A stretch of DNA of 64,000 nucleotides, taken from positions 55,557-119,556 of the IMG/VR virus record IMGVR_UViG_3300042884_000193. The stretch is one strand, 5' to 3'. The translations under genes and the position numbers were made by a program. Numbering within the stretch: the first letter of the stretch is position 1; each line of letters opens with the position of its first letter. Below are positions 1 to 55,814 of this stretch, in pieces. The notes beneath the pieces are model-generated. The model searched no databases. It was not told the DNA's origin and was given only the letters and a program-made list of their open reading frames with translations. This stretch comes from a virus.

Positions 1-2299
1 TTTGTAATGCTGCAATTAGTCCACTATTATAAGCATTTAAAGAAGCAGTGCCTTCTACAGATTCTTTTTTCTTACCTGCTATATGAACAACAATTGCTTC
101 AGCGATACCCGTTAAACATGCTACAATAAATGCTAAGTCAGTAAGTAACTTATGTCTAGGATGTCCAGGAACAGGTCTAAACTTACCCCTTACATTATAA
201 CCAAACTCATCAGAATTTTGAGATATCTCTGTATAGATTTTAAGTTCTGTTGGGGATAAGTAAGGATTTCTAAAGTTAGTTTCTGGTGAGTGAAATGTAA
301 AAAGATTTTGGCTATAAAATTTTATATCAGATGCTGATGTAGTTACACCAGGCCCATAAAAATAAATTTCATTAGTATCATTAACACCCCCATTAGTTTC
401 GTCATTAACAATAGCAGGATCTACATATAATGGATTAAAAGGATAGTTTTGAAATAAACCAATTGTAGTAGGCTCACTTGAGCCATCTACATCACTAACA
501 TTTTGTAACTTATAAGTACGCATGTTATTAATGATACCTTTTGCAAGTACTGTTTTATTACCTACACGAGTACCTCTTAATATTTCATAGCCTACAATAC
601 TAGGTATTATGTTACCATAATTATCTACAGGTGGTTTTATATTATCAAAAGTAACACCTAGCAATCTTATATATTGAGCTTTACCTAATGAGTCAGTTCT
701 AACATGTGTGTAGCTATCATTTATCACACCGTTAGCTGGTCCGTTAAATGTGTTAAGTAAATCGGCTGGCATCTTATGGTGTCGTATCGGCTTACCACAA
801 AGATCATAATCAAAACTATTAGTAGTTCCACCAATGTTTACTCCTGTATCAGGATCTGTATATGTAGCATTCCAGATATTGGGTTTATTATCTGGATAAA
901 TCTCAGATGATTCCCAGTAACCCATATCACCTTGAGCAATTACTACACCTCCATCAGGTAGTGTATAGTTAGTTGGTGTAAAGGTTGCTGTATTATATAC
1001 CTCCCATCTTTTAGGTATATAGGGCTCCATAGGATCCCCAGCTTCAATAGCATCAATATTATTTACAACAAAGTCTTGTCCTGTTGCAATATTATATTCT
1101 ATAAAAGGCTTACGCGCGCGACCCGGTATATGATAAGATGAACTTGTCTCGCCCGTATCATACACCCACCTAATCCAAAAAGCATATTGCTCATCACGCA
1201 TATATCCAACATTGGTTCCTGCTTTTTCATAGTAGGTATGTGGGTACTCGGTCATTACCCACTGTGTTGAAATCTGATTTGCTAAAGGTTGATAGTTGAA
1301 ATCAAATCTTCCTGTAGGTGCAATTCTAAATAAATACTCAGAGCTTGCTGCCATTGTATCTGATTTCTCATAAGGAAAGTTTCTATATGGTATTAGGGCC
1401 AATGGTATAGAGGGTAAAGACTCCTCTAAATTATCTATTGACACATATTTTGTACGAGTACTATAAGTACCAAATCTTTTAGCTGAACTATTAGCAGCCA
1501 CCATCCTAACTACAACAAGTTCAAACTCATCATAGTTATCTTGATCTAAGTTACTAAAGGTAATATCTAAAGATCCTTGTAAGTTATCGTGATTAAATAC
1601 AGCAACAACATTACTTGGAGAAAAATAATCAGTAGCCTTTACTCCATTTATAGTATATGCGATTACAACAAAGTAAGATCCATTAAGTAATGTCCCTCCA
1701 GTTGTTCCAATATCCATTGACATACAAGGTGAATGCGCATGTGATATAAGTCTTATTGCATCACAGTCTAATTGATTTGTAGGTGTGCATATAATACAAC
1801 TATCAATAGTAGTACAGTTTTGGATATACGGAACATTATCTACATTTAAAGATCTATCAGGATTTAATCCGTCTGCCCAGTATAATTGCCAGCTGCAATC
1901 AAAATTAAGTTTAGCAGCTCCAGTAATAAGATTACTTTGACTAAAACTTAAGCAATCATCATTAACAACTTTTATATAAGCATCAGTATCTCCACATTTT
2001 GCAGTATCAAAAAGACCAACCTCAGAATGAATATTATCTGTAGAGAAAATACCCCAAGTGGTATCGTGCATATATACAGCACCAATAACAGTATAAGGAG
2101 CAGAAGCACATAACAAGGTAGCCTGCTCAGTACTCAAGGTACCTAACTGTCCCTCATTTGTATTGTTTACAGCATTACGCGCATGTGACCACGCCCCTTC
2201 GGGAAAGAACACTTCATCATAGTCTTTAGTAAGACCTTTATTAAATGTACTTGTATTAACTTCTGATCCTGCATTTGAAGGGCCTTCTTTCTTTGCCAT
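1..2299 (-). CDS. Tail stabilisation/muzzle protein (crAss-like), truncated at window edge
   Basis: Not in the ORF track. ATG at 2299 gives MAKKEGPSNAGSEVNTSTFNKGLTKDYDEVFFPEGAWSHARNAVN...; the same frame includes GYMRDEQYAFWIRWVYDTGETSSSYHIPGR and is still open at position 2. It follows the ring-protein genes, as in Crassvirales. Confidence 0.8.
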   Translation of the reverse strand, partial: MAKKEGPSNAGSEVNTSTFNKGLTKDYDEVFFPEGAWSHARNAVNNTNEGQLGTLSTEQATLLCASAPYTVIGAVYMHDTTWGIFSTDNIHSEVGLFDTAKCGDTDAYIKVVNDDCLSFSQSNLITGAAKLNFDCSWQLYWADGLNPDRSLNVDNVPYIQNCTTIDSCIICTPTNQLDCDAIRLISHAHSPCMSMDIGTTGGTLLNGSYFVVIAYTINGVKATDYFSPSNVVAVFNHDNLQGSLDITFSNLDQDNYDEFELVVVRMVAANSSAKRFGTYSTRTKYVSIDNLEESLPSIPLALIPYRNFPYEKSDTMAASSEYLFRIAPTGRFDFNYQPLANQISTQWVMTEYPHTYYEKAGTNVGYMRDEQYAFWIRWVYDTGETSSSYHIPGRARKPFIEYNIATGQDFVVNNIDAIEAGDPMEPYIPKRWEVYNTATFTPTNYTLPDGGVVIAQGDMGYWESSEIYPDNKPNIWNATYTDPDTGVNIGGTTNSFDYDLCGKPIRHHKMPADLLNTFNGPANGVINDSYTHVRTDSLGKAQYIRLLGVTFDNIKPPVDNYGNIIPSIVGYEILRGTRVGNKTVLAKGIINNMRTYKLQNVSDVDGSSEPTTIGLFQNYPFNPLYVDPAIVNDETNGGVNDTNEIYFYGPGVTTSASDIKFYSQNLFTFHSPETNFRNPYLSPTELKIYTEISQNSDEFGYNVRGKFRPVPGHPRHKLLTDLAFIVACLTGIAEAIVVHIAGKKKESVEGTASLNAYNSGLIAALQ

Positions 2300-3877: not shown

Positions 3878-4459
3878 TTAAAATTCAAATTCATTATATG
3901 TTGAAATATCTTGTTCTTTAAGCTCAGAGAAAACAAAAGGCTTTGTTCTATTTGATATTAAAGCTGATACATTATCGCGTCTGCCTATGGTTACATAGGT
4001 CTTCCAGTTATTCTTAAACTCAGCAGAAAAGGTTCTCTTAAACTGTCTAATTGGAGTAAACCCCCACATAGAATAGTCTTTCATTGTACCCTTCTGCGTA
4101 TAGTTGGTATAAAATATTTTAGCCAATGCCCCATCTGACTCCCAATTCTTTCTTGCTACAGCTCCATCATCATTATGATAACTATAATAAGTCTTATAGT
4201 TATTACCATCATTGATGCAAGTAGCGCCAAATAACATTCCCAAATGCTCCGGAAGCTTAATACCATCTCGGGTAGTAATAACAGTTTTCCAGATCTCTTC
4301 AGAATGATGCATTATAATTTCTTTAAACTCCTTGTACTCAAGGTCTTTGTATTTAGGGAACTTGTTAATGAATTCTTTAAACATGTCTATGTTCAAAGTA
4401 GTTATAACATTCTTCCTAAATCTAGGTCCTTTTATATCAGGTCTTTGGTTATTACTCAT
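3878..4459 (-). CDS. IHF/HU-like conserved protein of the crAss tail block (putative)
   Basis: 193 aa; IWKTVITTRDGIKLPEHLGML resembles the HU/IHF beta-arm entry; position matches the IHF-like gene beside the tail genes. Confidence 0.45.
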   Translation of the reverse strand: MSNNQRPDIKGPRFRKNVITTLNIDMFKEFINKFPKYKDLEYKEFKEIIMHHSEEIWKTVITTRDGIKLPEHLGMLFGATCINDGNNYKTYYSYHNDDGAVARKNWESDGALAKIFYTNYTQKGTMKDYSMWGFTPIRQFKRTFSAEFKNNWKTYVTIGRRDNVSALISNRTKPFVFSELKEQDISTYNEFEF

Positions 4460-4536
4460 AACGTATACTACAATTTACAAAATTTCTTTCAGGTTTGAAA
4501 GATAATACATAATTGATTACTAGACAAGTAGTAGAA

Positions 4537-4562
4537 AGCCCCCAAGTTGTACTTGAGGGCCC
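4537..4562 (-). terminator. Hairpin downstream of the FN3 gene
   Basis: gcccccaagt-tgt-acttgagggc imperfect inverted repeat in an intergenic gap. Confidence 0.4.
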
Positions 4563-4597
4563 CCTGGTTTAGTCACGAATAAACCAACAAACGTAGA

Positions 4598-5143
4598 CTA
4601 TAATACAGGTAATGTCTTTATCATAATAAGCGCACTAATAGAAGTATCGCCATCACAATCTGTTCTCACTCTAAAATAATAGTTAGTATTAGAGTTTAAA
4701 AGAGTAAGTGTAAAAGTAGGAGTTGTTAAAGTAGGTGAGGTTGTATATACCCCTTCTACAGTTCCATAATCTACAGTATAACTTTCTGCTCCTGTATCTT
4801 CCCAATTAAGTATGATAGCTGTTGTACCTACATAACTAGGATGTATATTGATTGGAGGAAGACAGTTAGGATCAACACTTTGTGCTGACATTGCTTGGTA
4901 AGCATTTTCTAGTGAAGCTCCTGCAGGTAATGCTGGGTAAGAGTCACCACCTGCTAATAATTCTCCAAAGTTAATGATGCTATAGTTACCATGTTTTACA
5001 CAAGTGTCTTGGATAGTCTCATAGCACGGAGTTGGATCCGGGCATTTAATATCAGGAGGACATGTATATACAGGTGCAGTTGTAAGGGGGAGATCCTTAC
5101 AACCGCATGATGTATTTGTAGATTGACAAGTTGAACAAGCCAT
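4598..5143 (-). CDS. Cys-rich virion protein with C-terminal fibronectin type III domain
   Basis: C-terminus PPINI...IILNW...YTVDY...LNSNTNYYFRVRTDC follows the FN3 pattern; N-terminus is Cys-rich. Confidence 0.65.
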   Translation of the reverse strand: MACSTCQSTNTSCGCKDLPLTTAPVYTCPPDIKCPDPTPCYETIQDTCVKHGNYSIINFGELLAGGDSYPALPAGASLENAYQAMSAQSVDPNCLPPINIHPSYVGTTAIILNWEDTGAESYTVDYGTVEGVYTTSPTLTTPTFTLTLLNSNTNYYFRVRTDCDGDTSISALIMIKTLPVL

Positions 5144-38075: not shown

Positions 38076-38366
38076 ATGACACAGATATTAGTTCCCGATA
38101 ATGTCAACCCATATGATAAGAAAGAACTAATGTCCTTTATAGAGTCATTAGGCTTAAGTCTTATGGAAGACTATGAGGAAGTATTCCAATATCTTGATCC
38201 ATTTACCCAAGGTAGATGGATTGATATGGGAATGAAAGTATTTTTAACTGTGAATACTTATAGACGACATCCAGGTAAAAGATTTGTAGTAGGCTATAAT
38301 GTAGACTATGTAAGATCTGATAAGCCTGTTAAGTCTTATGTAGTTCACGAGTATAAAATGATTTAG
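38076..38366 (+). CDS. Hypothetical protein
   Basis: 96-aa ORF. Confidence 0.6.
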   Translation: MTQILVPDNVNPYDKKELMSFIESLGLSLMEDYEEVFQYLDPFTQGRWIDMGMKVFLTVNTYRRHPGKRFVVGYNVDYVRSDKPVKSYVVHEYKMI

Positions 38367-38367
38367 T

Positions 38368-38608
38368 GAGCCGGTGCAGTATAGGTGAAAGTTGAATAAG
38401 ACCTACTCTGTAAACAAAACCTCAACCCGGGTACACGATGTAAGGGTCAACTATGCAGGTCTGTAAATTCACAGTTCAGACAACCTGCGAGATAACAGAA
38501 ACTGTAACAGATTATGAGAGCCGTGACTACCATATAAAAGTAGTCAGTCCACGATGGCAAGGTATGCAAGGGTTAACACTTACTATGATAGGCTTCATAA
38601 TTCTGATT
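38368..38608 (+). ncRNA. Candidate structured ncRNA upstream of the twister ribozyme
   Basis: No listed ORF; several long stems (gcaggtctg/cagac..acctgc, cagattatga..gcc/ggcttcataattctg, gactac/gtagtc) and a possible pseudoknot. Confidence 0.55.
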
Positions 38609-38761
38609 TGTATTAATGCATCATAACTTACTTCACAAGGGTAAGCAGTTATAGTATATGCCGAGTTAGATAGATTTGATAATCTATACTATACGTAGGG
38701 TCTCTTCAGACTTGGAGTAACGTCCAGCAGGTAATACTATAACTGAATGCAGAGTGGTACA
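38609..38761 (+). ncRNA. Twister ribozyme (type P1) with large P5 insertion
   Basis: P1 tgtat/gtaca; TAA cleavage motif; P2 tgca/tgca; P4 cttac/gtaag with loop TTCACAAGG; GA-GTG 3-prime core; T1 CAC/GTG; P5 cagttatagta/tactataactg. Confidence 0.75.
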
Positions 38762-38813
38762 CACCAAGGTTAAACTTCTACCTTAAAAGAAGTAACATAA
38801 AACAAATAGTAAT

Positions 38814-39125
38814 ATGGCAGACGAGAGCATATTCGCTAAACCATTACCAGTATACTGGACTATGGCAAACAAACAGAGTATTAAGGTAGATGATATGGGC
38901 AATGGCCATGTCAGGAATGCTTTTAAAGTACTCATTGTTCAGCATAACAAGTTAAAGCGTGAGTATAATACGCTTGTTGATATGTACGATGACTTGATGA
39001 AGCAATCAGGAACTGTTGTCAAGTCCTATAAAGAGGTTACTCTTAATGGTGATATGGCACAAGAGTTTAATGATAAGCAAGAAGAACAAGCCAATGACCC
39101 TGAAGGTGATGGCTGTCCATTTTAA
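38814..39125 (+). CDS. Hypothetical protein
   Basis: 103 aa; W...I.VDDM...HVRNA motif common in small phage proteins. Confidence 0.65.
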   Translation: MADESIFAKPLPVYWTMANKQSIKVDDMGNGHVRNAFKVLIVQHNKLKREYNTLVDMYDDLMKQSGTVVKSYKEVTLNGDMAQEFNDKQEEQANDPEGDGCPF

Positions 39126-39180: not shown

Positions 39181-39219
39181 AACCTGCGGGTGTTGGGCTA
39201 TGCCCGCAGGTACTTTTTT
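39181..39219 (+). terminator. Rho-independent terminator
   Basis: acctgcgggt...gcccgcaggt followed by tttttt. Confidence 0.8.
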
Positions 39220-39250
39220 GTAAATAAGTTAAATCAATTAATACACGACT

Positions 39251-40562: not shown

Positions 40563-41702
40563 ATGGAAACAACAATTATTAGTAAAGCTGTTTTTACAGA
40601 AAGAGAAGCTTATACTACTCTTAAGACACAGTCATTAGATAAGCAAAGATTTGCTTTCTTTGGTCATAAACTGCATACATGGGCAGAAGATACGCGTGCA
40701 GAGTCTGATACGCATGTGTATTGGGCAAGCAATGCCTGTATTCCTAAATGGAATATTAAGACAGGCTTGTATCTTAAAAGAGAAGCTGGTGCAGGATGTA
40801 GCTATGATAAAGTCAAGAAGACTTTTAAATGGTGGTATGGTAAGCAAGCTATTATAGCATGTCCTGTGTTAGTGGCTGATATGTGTAACTATTTTAAGAC
40901 AGAATGGTTTGATGCTATTCCGCCGTCTTTGAGAGTTAGTTGTACTAATACTAATCTTAACAAGGTATTGTTAGGTAAAGTTACTAATCCTCGTGATCTA
41001 ATCAAGGCTATTCTAAAGACTAATCCTGTAATGCGTGGTATGAATATTTCTACAGAAACTCTGTGGAAATATGTAAACACAAGAGGTCAAGCCAATAGAC
41101 TTCAAGCTTTATCTGATATAATGACTGTTGCAAAGGACCCTAATCATGCATTAGAGTACATGGCAACTGCAGAGTATATGAGTTTTGATACGCAGGATTT
41201 GATTAAGCAGGCTCAAAGACTTAACCGCAAAATAGATTTTAAGTGGTCTAGATCTCGTATGGGTGAGGTTCACAGTGAGTGGACCAAAGACATAATGGAT
41301 ATAGAGCAAGAGCATGTGGAATGCATTGACTATGCGTATATTAACGAGTTACCCAATAATGGTAGCCTTGAGTTAGTTACTAATAGTAAGGATCTATATA
41401 TAGAAGGTAGACTTATGTCTCACTGCGTGTATACCAACTATGCTTCACAGGTTAAGGATAAATCTTATTTTGTATTTAAGTTTAATGACCGTGATGTACG
41501 TGCTACTGTTGGTATTACTAGATACTATGATCATAATTGTTTTGTTATTAACCAGATGCATGGTAAGCATAACAAGAGCATTGATCAATGTCATCAGGAT
41601 TATGTAAAGGAATGGTTAGACAAACCAGAAGTACAACAATGGTTTAAAGAGAACTACAAGACTAATCAGTTGGCAAGTCCACCTGAAATGTTGTGGTTAT
41701 AA
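40563..41702 (+). CDS. PcfJ-like domain protein
   Basis: C-terminal DLYIEGRLMSHCVYTNY...RATVGI...QMHGKHN. Confidence 0.7.
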   Translation: METTIISKAVFTEREAYTTLKTQSLDKQRFAFFGHKLHTWAEDTRAESDTHVYWASNACIPKWNIKTGLYLKREAGAGCSYDKVKKTFKWWYGKQAIIACPVLVADMCNYFKTEWFDAIPPSLRVSCTNTNLNKVLLGKVTNPRDLIKAILKTNPVMRGMNISTETLWKYVNTRGQANRLQALSDIMTVAKDPNHALEYMATAEYMSFDTQDLIKQAQRLNRKIDFKWSRSRMGEVHSEWTKDIMDIEQEHVECIDYAYINELPNNGSLELVTNSKDLYIEGRLMSHCVYTNYASQVKDKSYFVFKFNDRDVRATVGITRYYDHNCFVINQMHGKHNKSIDQCHQDYVKEWLDKPEVQQWFKENYKTNQLASPPEMLWL

Positions 41703-55070: not shown

Positions 55071-55814
55071 ATGGAGATTAAACTTCCTACTAGTAAGGTT
55101 CCGGCTGAGCAATCAAGTCCGCGTAACCTGGTAATCTTTTCAAAGCCAAAGACTGGCAAAACAACATTATTGTCACAGCTTGATAACTGTCTTATTCTAG
55201 ATTTAGAAAAGGGCTCTAAGTATGTAGATGCGATGAAAGTTGAAGCTCACTCTATTGAGGAGATTAAGCAAATCGGTAAAGCAATTACAGAAGCAGGTAA
55301 CCCCTATAAGTATATTGCTGTAGACACAATCACTGCATTAGAAGAGATGTGTATTCCGTATGCTGAACAATTGTATATGAAAACTCCTATGGGTAAGAAC
55401 TGGCCTACTGATGGTAAGCTTAAGTACGGAACCATTATAGGACTACCTAACGGTGCTGGTTACCAGTATCTTAGAGAAGCTTTTACGAAAGCTGTAGCCT
55501 ATATTCAAACATGGGCACCTAGAATTATTCTAGTAGGACACGTGAAAGATACAATGTTGGAGAAAGATGGTGCTGAGTTTAACTCATTAGATTTAGATCT
55601 AACAGGTAAACTAAAAAGAATTACAGCATCTAATTCTGATTCTATTGGATATCTTTACAGAAAAGGTAAGAAGAATATCTTGAGCTTTAAGACTAGTGAT
55701 GAGATTGCATGTGGTGCAAGACCTAGGCACTTGAGTAACCAAGAAATTATTCTATCTGAAATAGATAGCGAGGGTAATATTACTACAAACTGGGATAAAA
55801 TTTACATTGATTAA
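55071..55814 (+). CDS. AAA_24/Sak4-like ATPase
   Basis: SKPKTGKTT, LDLEKG, AVDTITAL and LVGHVKD motifs. Confidence 0.8.
   Translation: MEIKLPTSKVPAEQSSPRNLVIFSKPKTGKTTLLSQLDNCLILDLEKGSKYVDAMKVEAHSIEEIKQIGKAITEAGNPYKYIAVDTITALEEMCIPYAEQLYMKTPMGKNWPTDGKLKYGTIIGLPNGAGYQYLREAFTKAVAYIQTWAPRIILVGHVKDTMLEKDGAEFNSLDLDLTGKLKRITASNSDSIGYLYRKGKKNILSFKTSDEIACGARPRHLSNQEIILSEIDSEGNITTNWDKIYID

Follow-up and report, generated by a model that had tools for sequence, protein, structure and literature searches.

A candidate type-P1 twister ribozyme with an obligatory P5 in an uncultured phage genome, and the phage-borne subfamily to which it belongs

The DNA considered here is a 64,000-nucleotide (nt) window of the IMG/VR record IMGVR_UViG_3300042884_000193, corresponding to positions 55,557 to 119,556 of that record, and the coordinates given for this locus are those of the window. 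A 447-nt gap between two open reading frames (ORFs), at 38076-38366 and 38814-39125, contains a structured element on the plus strand (38609-38761), and the larger ORFs nearby are all on that strand as well. This element is quite probably a self-cleaving ribozyme of the twister class in its type-P1 form, with no P3 and with an obligatory P5, and we infer its catalytic activity from its letters and from those of its relatives.

The element begins and ends with P1, whose five base pairs (bp) join tgtat 38609-13 to gtaca 38757-61, the innermost pair being U-G. Next comes UAA (38614-38616), the 5' strand of loop L1, which holds the predicted scissile bond U38614/A38615; the U-A step adjoins P1 as it does in the twister consensus (Rfam alignment, PMC5408937). 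It is followed by P2, four pairs between UGCA 38617-20 and UGCA 38748-51, and by the 5' strand of the T2 pseudoknot, UC 38621-22, which lies opposite GG 38639-40 and pairs as U-G, then C-G. The place of P3 is taken by the junction AUAA (38623-38626), which forms no hairpin. The P4 hairpin (38627-38645) consists of cuuac 38627-31 and guaag 38641-45 around the loop L4, UUCACAAGG. Within L4 (ttcacaagg, 38632-40), CAC 38634-36 is the 5' strand of the T1 pseudoknot, AA occupies 38637-38, and GG 38639-40 is the 3' strand of T2.

The P5 domain (38646-38745) is built on a 12-bp stem (38646-57/38734-45) and an inner 4-bp stem (38659-62/38730-33), and its predicted fold contains hairpins A (38665-94), B (38699-712) and C (38713-26). 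The junction AA (38746-38747) leads from P5 to P2, and beyond P2 stand GA (38752-38753), which belongs to the L1 3' strand and matches GA of the Rfam twister-P1 consensus, and GUG (38754-38756), the T1 3' strand, which pairs with CAC 38634-36. G38752 occupies the site of the twister general-base guanine and, by analogy with the literature (PMC6765202), would have a catalytic role. A first-pass annotation of this DNA had already placed P1, P2, P4, T1, T2, TAA and GA, all of which were located at the same coordinates when checked on the sequence. Its P5 does close further hairpins, and the stem that it gave as 11 bp is 12 bp long.

The minimum free energy (MFE) fold of the plus strand recovers P1, P2, P4 and P5 (z = -2.74; 3 of 200 shuffles fold equally well), while the minus strand folds less well (z = -2.00) and the isolated P5 domain has an MFE of -31.7 kcal/mol. 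A type-P1 descriptor, written after the candidate had been seen, was defined by a 4-bp P1, P2 and P4, a 3-bp T1, a 2-bp T2 and the letters UAA, AA and GA. Its single match on both strands of the window is the element at 38609-38761, and in 804 dinucleotide shuffles it finds 0.053 sites per 64-kb strand, or about 0.1 per window by chance. Taken alone, the element therefore exceeds chance weakly, and the bare core is not rare; it stands above chance because of its family, from which an independent model recovers it, as described below.

No match was obtained when 501 and 8000 bases were compared by BLAST with 50,697 phage records. A PcfJ-like protein encoded at 40563-41702 led to four closer contigs, two of which, L007 and L008, carry the same element and are its closest relatives. 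Both halves of their core are nearly identical to those of the window, the P5 interior differs in sequence and in length, and P4 of L007 is CTCAC/GTGAG, a compensatory change with respect to the CTTAC/GTAAG of the window.

The family was sought in IMG/VR with an IUPAC pattern of 20 letters that describes the 3' half of the element and that fixed P2, GA and the 3' strand of the first five P5 pairs. This pattern is present in at least 120 IMG/VR stretches and has five matches among 185,579 species genomes, all in contigs of metagenome-assembled genomes, so that viral contigs account for almost the whole family. An L4 motif precedes the 3' half in 114 of the 128 instances. Parsing, with TAA and the form of L4 as selection criteria, and removal of duplicates left 69 distinct full elements with the layout of the window. 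The other 29 of the 98 distinct regular-expression parses were dropped, as they represented spurious 5' halves, an architecture with an insert in L4, CAA variants, or elements with two extra letters after UAA. Outside the 69 there are thus L024, L085, L096, L115 and L109, with two extra letters between UAA and P2, and L014, in which CAA replaces UAA.

The consensus of the 69 elements reads, in its 5' part, P1, UAA, UGCA, (C/U)C, AUU or AUAA, and a 5-bp P4 whose strands enclose UUC(C/A)CAAGG; the 3' part continues with CAGUUGUAAU, a variable interior, AUUACAACUG, A(G/A), UGCA, GA, G(G/U)G and the second strand of P1. The junction at the P3 site is AUU in 37 elements, AUAA in 23, ACAA in 5 and another sequence in 4, and the junction from P5 to P2 is AG in 62 and AA in 7. 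An alternative helix between the first junction (AUAACU) and the P5 5' strand was dropped because this junction is AUU in 37 of the 69. A covariance model, R1, was built from 58 of the elements, leaving out the window, L007, L008, L032 and seven members with a very long P5. It matches 38607-38763 on the plus strand over the full length of the model, with 93.5 bits and an E value of 1.8e-22, and this is its only match in the window (E ≤ 10) and in the genome. The window element belongs to a large, phage-borne, twister-like subfamily.

A short motif, AAACUG(C/U), recurs a few letters 5' of P1 in L011, L026, L038, L046, L056, L061, L077, L084, L089, L105, L107, L111 and L130. Its letters are complementary to those at which the P4 3' strand meets the P5 5' strand, and it may form an alternative pairing there; the motif is not present in the window.

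Covariation was counted in alignment A1, which has one row for each of the 69 elements. The paired cells amount to 92.9%, against 82.2% in shuffles, and the covariation score is 0.318, against 0.125, with none of 500 shuffles reaching the observed value in either case; sliding the partners by 1-3 columns lowers pairing to 32-45%. P4 is paired in 99.4% of cells, all five of its pairs have changed on both sides, and 13 strand combinations are found. P1 is paired in 77% of cells with four of five pairs changed on both sides, and its run of consecutive pairs averages 3.58, compared with 1.97 when partners are shuffled (maximum 2.39 in 1000 shuffles). The three T1 pairs are each 100% paired, the middle one being C-G in 63 elements and A-U in 6. 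No element has an unpaired T2: the first pair is C-G in 62 and U-G in 7, and the second is C-G in all 69. The first five P5 pairs, whose 3' strand lies inside the search pattern, are invariant, and the distal pairs covary.

That P2, GA and the initial P5 pairs do not vary in this first set is uninformative, because the search pattern fixed them. P2 was therefore left free in two further scans anchored on the 5' half. The first gave L132, with P2 AAUA/UAUU; this element (363-435) is a minimal natural member, with a 5-bp P1 and a P5 reduced to a 13-nt hairpin. In the second, the 3' half was located without reference to P2, and the 34 distinct elements obtained have P2 UGUA/UACA (27), UGUA/UGCA (6) or AGUA/UACU (1); for 25 of the 59 5' halves the strict rule yielded no 3' half, and these were left uncounted. 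Covariation at homologous phage loci, which had been named beforehand as a test of the assignment, is thus present in P1, P2 and T1, and also in P4.

The order of elements and the pairing scheme are those of a type-P1 twister, as the first-pass annotation had proposed. In common with the auxiliary-P5 form of that type (RF03160), the family has P1, the U-A step, P2, T2, a P4 loop that forms both T1 and T2, P5, the second strand of P2, GA, the second strand of T1 and that of P1. The lengths agree as well, with a 3-bp T1 and, as read here, a 4-bp P2 and a 2-bp T2, and UAA, the AA of L4 and GA are conserved, TAA and GA being part of the selection or search pattern here. The letters matching the Rfam twister-P1 consensus are UAA, the C of P2, the loop U, CCC, AA and GA-GGG. 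Twisters are described as built on three stems that are essential, to which P0, P3 and P5 may be added, with two pseudoknots and an A that is conserved at the scissile step (PMC5408937); according to the same source, activity does not require P1, and within the class P3 can be dispensed with and P5 is optional. In contrast to the type-P1 twister at large, P3 is always absent from the 69 elements and P5, with a conserved base, is always present. L4 reads UU-C(C/A)C-AA-GG where the class has U, CCC, AA and GC, so that the U, two of the three C and the AA are kept. The departures from the class that had been noticed in the window, namely an extra U in L4, a U-G wobble in T2 and the large P5, are real and recur: the extra U and P5 are found in 69 of 69 elements (the form of L4 being a selection criterion), and the T2 wobble in 7 of 69, including the window.

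The P5 domain of these elements varies in both sequence and length. Among the 69 it spans 41-203 nt (median 86), and the 13 nt of L132 lie below that range. The base of P5 forms in the MFE fold of 61 of the 69, and the domain folds into one to five hairpins; the stability of the interiors relative to shuffles is modest (mean z = -0.99, with 19% of interiors below -2). The window P5 interior (38658-38733) is 83% identical to positions 533-605 of L054. There the whole module (521-617) is free-standing between two tandem twisters, at 420-521 and 618-769, outside any P5, and immediately precedes P1 of the second twister; the P1, T1 and T2 letters of that twister are of the window type. The modules of the window and of L054 share a three-hairpin fold, with 2 compensatory pairs of 33, and L216 (about 4028-4124) has the same module sequence as L054. 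Pattern matches to the module in L214 and L215 were set aside as chance-like, since they lack both the rest of the module and a nearby twister core, and their flanks look coding-like by eye.

Because the interior is variable in the family, and because its copy in L054 stands outside P5, the window P5 domain is best read as an exchangeable structured module, peripheral to the catalytic core, and the comparison suggests that such modules move between positions. The interior was also considered as a conserved aptamer, a candidate that was rejected on its variability, the window version being common to L054 and L216 only. The proposal of the first-pass annotation that P5 might regulate cleavage finds no support, given an interior that varies even in L007 and L008, that is replaced by 13 nt in L132 and that occurs outside P5 in L054.

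A second architecture is represented by 11 distinct elements, in L002 (2268-2535), L015, L016, L019, L049, L059, L072, L073, L092, L116 and L127. In 9 of the 11, a distance of 67-164 nt separates L4 from the 5' half upstream of it, which extends through the P4 5' strand, and in all 8 that were folded P4 pairs across the insert, with covarying variants. The insert sits in L4 at the position of the extra U of the standard members and has two conserved stems, conserved internal-loop letters and compensatory changes; in L002 it has no match in Rfam. The available text of PMC5408937 names P0, P3 and P5 as optional twister stems and no stem at this site. Directly before the UAA of the L002 element, at 2243-2272, there is a family-type 3' half with GAG for GGG and with no obvious 5' half, which may be a decayed tandem copy.

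Turning to the surroundings of the window element, the upstream ORF (38076-38366) encodes a 96-amino-acid (aa) protein for which no relatives were found in viral contigs. The first downstream ORF (38814-39125, plus strand), taken from the ORF list, encodes a protein of 103 aa without a Pfam or PHROG match, which has relatives at 30-44% identity in five viral contigs, L002-L006, with L002 the closest; after cleavage its message would carry the body of the ribozyme at the 5' end. A terminator-like hairpin (39182-39221), 12 pairs followed by a T run, is the only strong one near the element. The hairpin closely follows ORF 38814-39125, so that processing could yield a short monocistronic message. 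The family elements are mostly intergenic, 53 of the 69 being free of any overlapping ORF that reaches 70 aa, and the gaps that separate them from their neighbors have medians of 243 nt on the upstream side and 168 nt on the downstream side. The ORF that follows shares the strand of the element in 56 of 61 cases, and the one that precedes it does so in 44 of 59.

Processing of tRNA was examined as a general role and rejected, because a tRNA lies within 100 nt of 1 of the 69 elements (ARAGORN) and none is present in the window. The element of L082 (1924-2074, minus strand) ends directly at the 5' end of a tRNA-Gln found by ARAGORN, and in L059 (about 1249-1374, plus strand) an Rfam tRNA match begins 7 nt past the 3' motif.

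The block upstream of the predicted cut (38444-38614, plus strand) would be the 3' end of the 5' cleavage product. Contigs from all four metatranscriptome runs that were aligned, taken by different studies from freshwater or lakes, are 95-99% identical to it. They span 38444-38583, 38444-38594, 38444-38617 or 38384-38552, and none covers 38618-38761; in ten metatranscriptome runs, only 7-10% of the sampled words were found in each. These contigs are evidence neither for nor against the cut, because they come from relatives and their ends are scattered (38552, 38583, 38594, 38617). In three runs, C38567T introduces a stop at codon 39 of ORF 38453-38626, which overlaps P1 and P2; this ORF is therefore not conserved, and the upstream block 38444-38614 is probably non-coding. 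The stretch 38444-38617 may be a conserved non-coding RNA that ends at the predicted ribozyme cut. A longer segment, 38367-38614 (248 nt), was tried as a thermodynamically stable structured RNA and rejected (folding energy z = -0.04).

Several observations weigh against the assignment to a cleaving twister. The Rfam scan of the window at gathering thresholds gave no match, and a permissive scan of 38450-38900 (E ≤ 10) gave no ribozyme and two chance-level matches, to a small nucleolar RNA and a microRNA. The search with the twister models RF03160, RF03154 and RF02684 (gathering thresholds 67.2, 39.9 and 37.6 bits), which had been put forward as a check of the element, found nothing there: over the whole 119,556-bp record none of the three reaches E ≤ 10 on it. 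A 33-nt match of RF03160 at G000:C1:23090-23122 (21.7 bits), far from the element, is not regarded as real. Short-P5 members of the family and the minimal L132 likewise escape these models at E ≤ 10, so that the long insert alone does not account for the failure, which is attributable to the divergence of the core and the absence of P3.

The letters of the core are a second point of doubt. The first T2 pair is C-G or U-G in the family and G-C in the twister consensus, L4 is one U longer than that of type-P1 twisters, and the pair that closes L4 varies (C-G in 49, A-U in 16, others in 4) where it is a near-invariant G-C in the class. T2 can pair in 69 of 69 elements, with letters that differ from the GC of the class, and its first letter also covaries with the letter before the second strand of P2. 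Thus position 38621 covaries perfectly with 38747 (C..G in 62, U..A in 7), and, next to the four UGCA/UGCA pairs of the window P2, a fifth pair 38621-38747 is possible; these two letters may form such a pair, in competition with T2, or a base triple. If Watson-Crick, the pair would compete with T2 and lengthen P2, and an altered number of P2 pairs may disturb the twister active site (PMC5408937). Furthermore, the six to seven elements with the A-U and U..A variants of the window may reflect few independent events, and it was the search pattern that kept P2, GA and the P5 base from varying in the first set. Finally, the metatranscriptome contig that reaches 38617, X8, continues from there in unlike sequence, and assembled contigs cannot show RNA ends.

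A rival explanation is that the element is a conserved structured RNA with a twister-like fold that has lost cleavage or never had it, such as a folded leader or a protein-binding element kept for its shape alone. In its favor are the escape from every Rfam twister model at E ≤ 10, the departures in T2 and L4 from the near-invariant canonical letters and the possible fifth P2 pair competing with T2, and there are precedents in some structures near ribozyme-associated genes that did not cleave when tested (PMC6765202). This explanation is nevertheless improbable, as the letters on which twister catalysis depends are all there and do not vary in the family, namely the two A that follow the scissile bond, the G of GA, the three T1 pairs and the AA of L4, and both pseudoknots are kept through changes. 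Moreover, deviations of this kind are reported to be tolerated: natural twisters that were tested cleave largely as before when the 2-bp pseudoknot contains a G-U or U-G wobble, and their activity is independent of the length of L4 (PMC11662667).

Alternatively, conservation could act on the DNA, with the P5 base and the core as a recombination or nuclease target around exchangeable cassettes and the RNA fold as an incidental property. The highly conserved P5 base with its freely swapped interior, the occurrence of the window P5 interior elsewhere in L054, and the presence of the family in phages whose DNA is otherwise unlike that of the window speak for this view. On the other hand, changes that keep Watson-Crick pairing in P1, P2, P4 and the long-range T1 are expected of an RNA but not of a DNA site, the elements are co-oriented with the downstream gene in 56 of 61 cases, and the conservation of the P5 base is partly imposed by the search pattern, all of which makes a DNA site very unlikely. 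A chance resemblance to a twister in an AT-rich spacer, for which the expectation of about 0.1 loose descriptor matches per 64-kb window on both strands and the lack of an Rfam match might be cited, is already refuted by the covariation among at least 69 distinct elements and by the match of the independent model R1 (E 1.8e-22), and its probability is close to nil.

For the favored reading, a type-P1 twister that cleaves itself, the following course of events can be proposed. The element would be transcribed together with the rightward cluster of small genes, and on folding T1 (CAC/GUG) and T2 (UC/GG) would bring L4 onto the internal loop. The cut, predicted between U38614 and A38615 from the U-A step beside P1, would leave a 2',3'-cyclic phosphate on the upstream RNA, while the downstream RNA would consist of a 5'-hydroxyl, the ribozyme and then ORF 38814-39125. 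The ribozyme would accordingly serve to detach the downstream message from the non-coding RNA that precedes it, as a form of polycistronic transcript processing, which is among the roles suggested for bacterial twisters (PMC6765202).

Other ribozymes are found near members of the family. In L002, upstream of the homologue of the 103-aa protein, there is a Hatchet ribozyme at 983-1134 (81.7 bits, above the Rfam cut-off) and, at 2035-2098, a match to a canonical, P3-bearing twister-P1 (49.4 bits, E 2.6e-8, below the 67.2 cut-off); in all, two twister-type elements and one Hatchet precede that gene. A further Hatchet is present in L013 (6387-6553, 79.3 bits, above the Rfam cut-off). The Hatchets and the canonical twister lie within about 1-1.5 kb of family elements and on the same strand, forming mixed ribozyme clusters in phage intergenic regions. 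L004, a contig related to the window via the 103-aa protein, contains a gene for transfer-messenger RNA (4500-4876, 61.1 bits, above the cut-off).

This arrangement resembles that of the bacterial twister and hammerhead ribozymes found near phage genes (Roth 2014, Weinberg 2015, via PMC10085705 and PMC6765202), which are also phage-associated and have other ribozymes nearby. The setting is different, since the elements described here are located in genomes of uncultured phages that are complete or large, many of them 110-125 kb long, and not among Mu-like prophage genes in chromosomes. The theta ribozymes, minimal hepatitis delta virus-like ribozymes at phage tRNAs (PMC10879173), are likewise a small self-cleaving class in uncultured phages, and a few members of the present family directly precede a tRNA; the theta ribozymes belong to a different ribozyme class, and tRNA adjacency is rare here (1 of 69).

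The twister class, its type-P1 form, the optional P5 and the association with phage genes and other ribozymes are all known in print, to the extent covered by the sources cited. A literature search found no description of this phage twister subfamily, although earlier alignments (Roth 2014) and supplements, which were outside the search, may include members. The subfamily amounts to at least about 200 IMG/VR stretches over the scans with the 3'-half and 5'-half patterns and is invisible to Rfam. Because the standard Rfam models miss it, ribozyme surveys of viral metagenomes undercount twisters. Its members also demonstrate that positions of the twister regarded as "invariant" are changeable in nature, namely the first T2 pair, the length of L4 and the pair that closes it, and they point to an insertion site in L4 outside the optional stems P0, P3 and P5 named in the available sources.

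The chemistry of the twister is well understood, while its biological role is still open (PMC6765202, PMC10085705). The large and sometimes complete phage genomes reported here, with ribozymes at defined intergenic positions and co-oriented genes, offer a concrete setting in which to ask for the purpose of the cut. A speculative proposal, to which we give little credence at present, is that the P5 interior, the two-stem insert of L4 and the L054 module are exchangeable cassettes that bind a phage or host factor and thereby time the cut that matures the 3' end of 38444-38614, taken as a conserved non-coding RNA and as the portion found in the freshwater metatranscriptomes. If this were true, twisters would acquire a defined role in phage RNA maturation, and L4 would join P0, P3 and P5 as a site of insertion.

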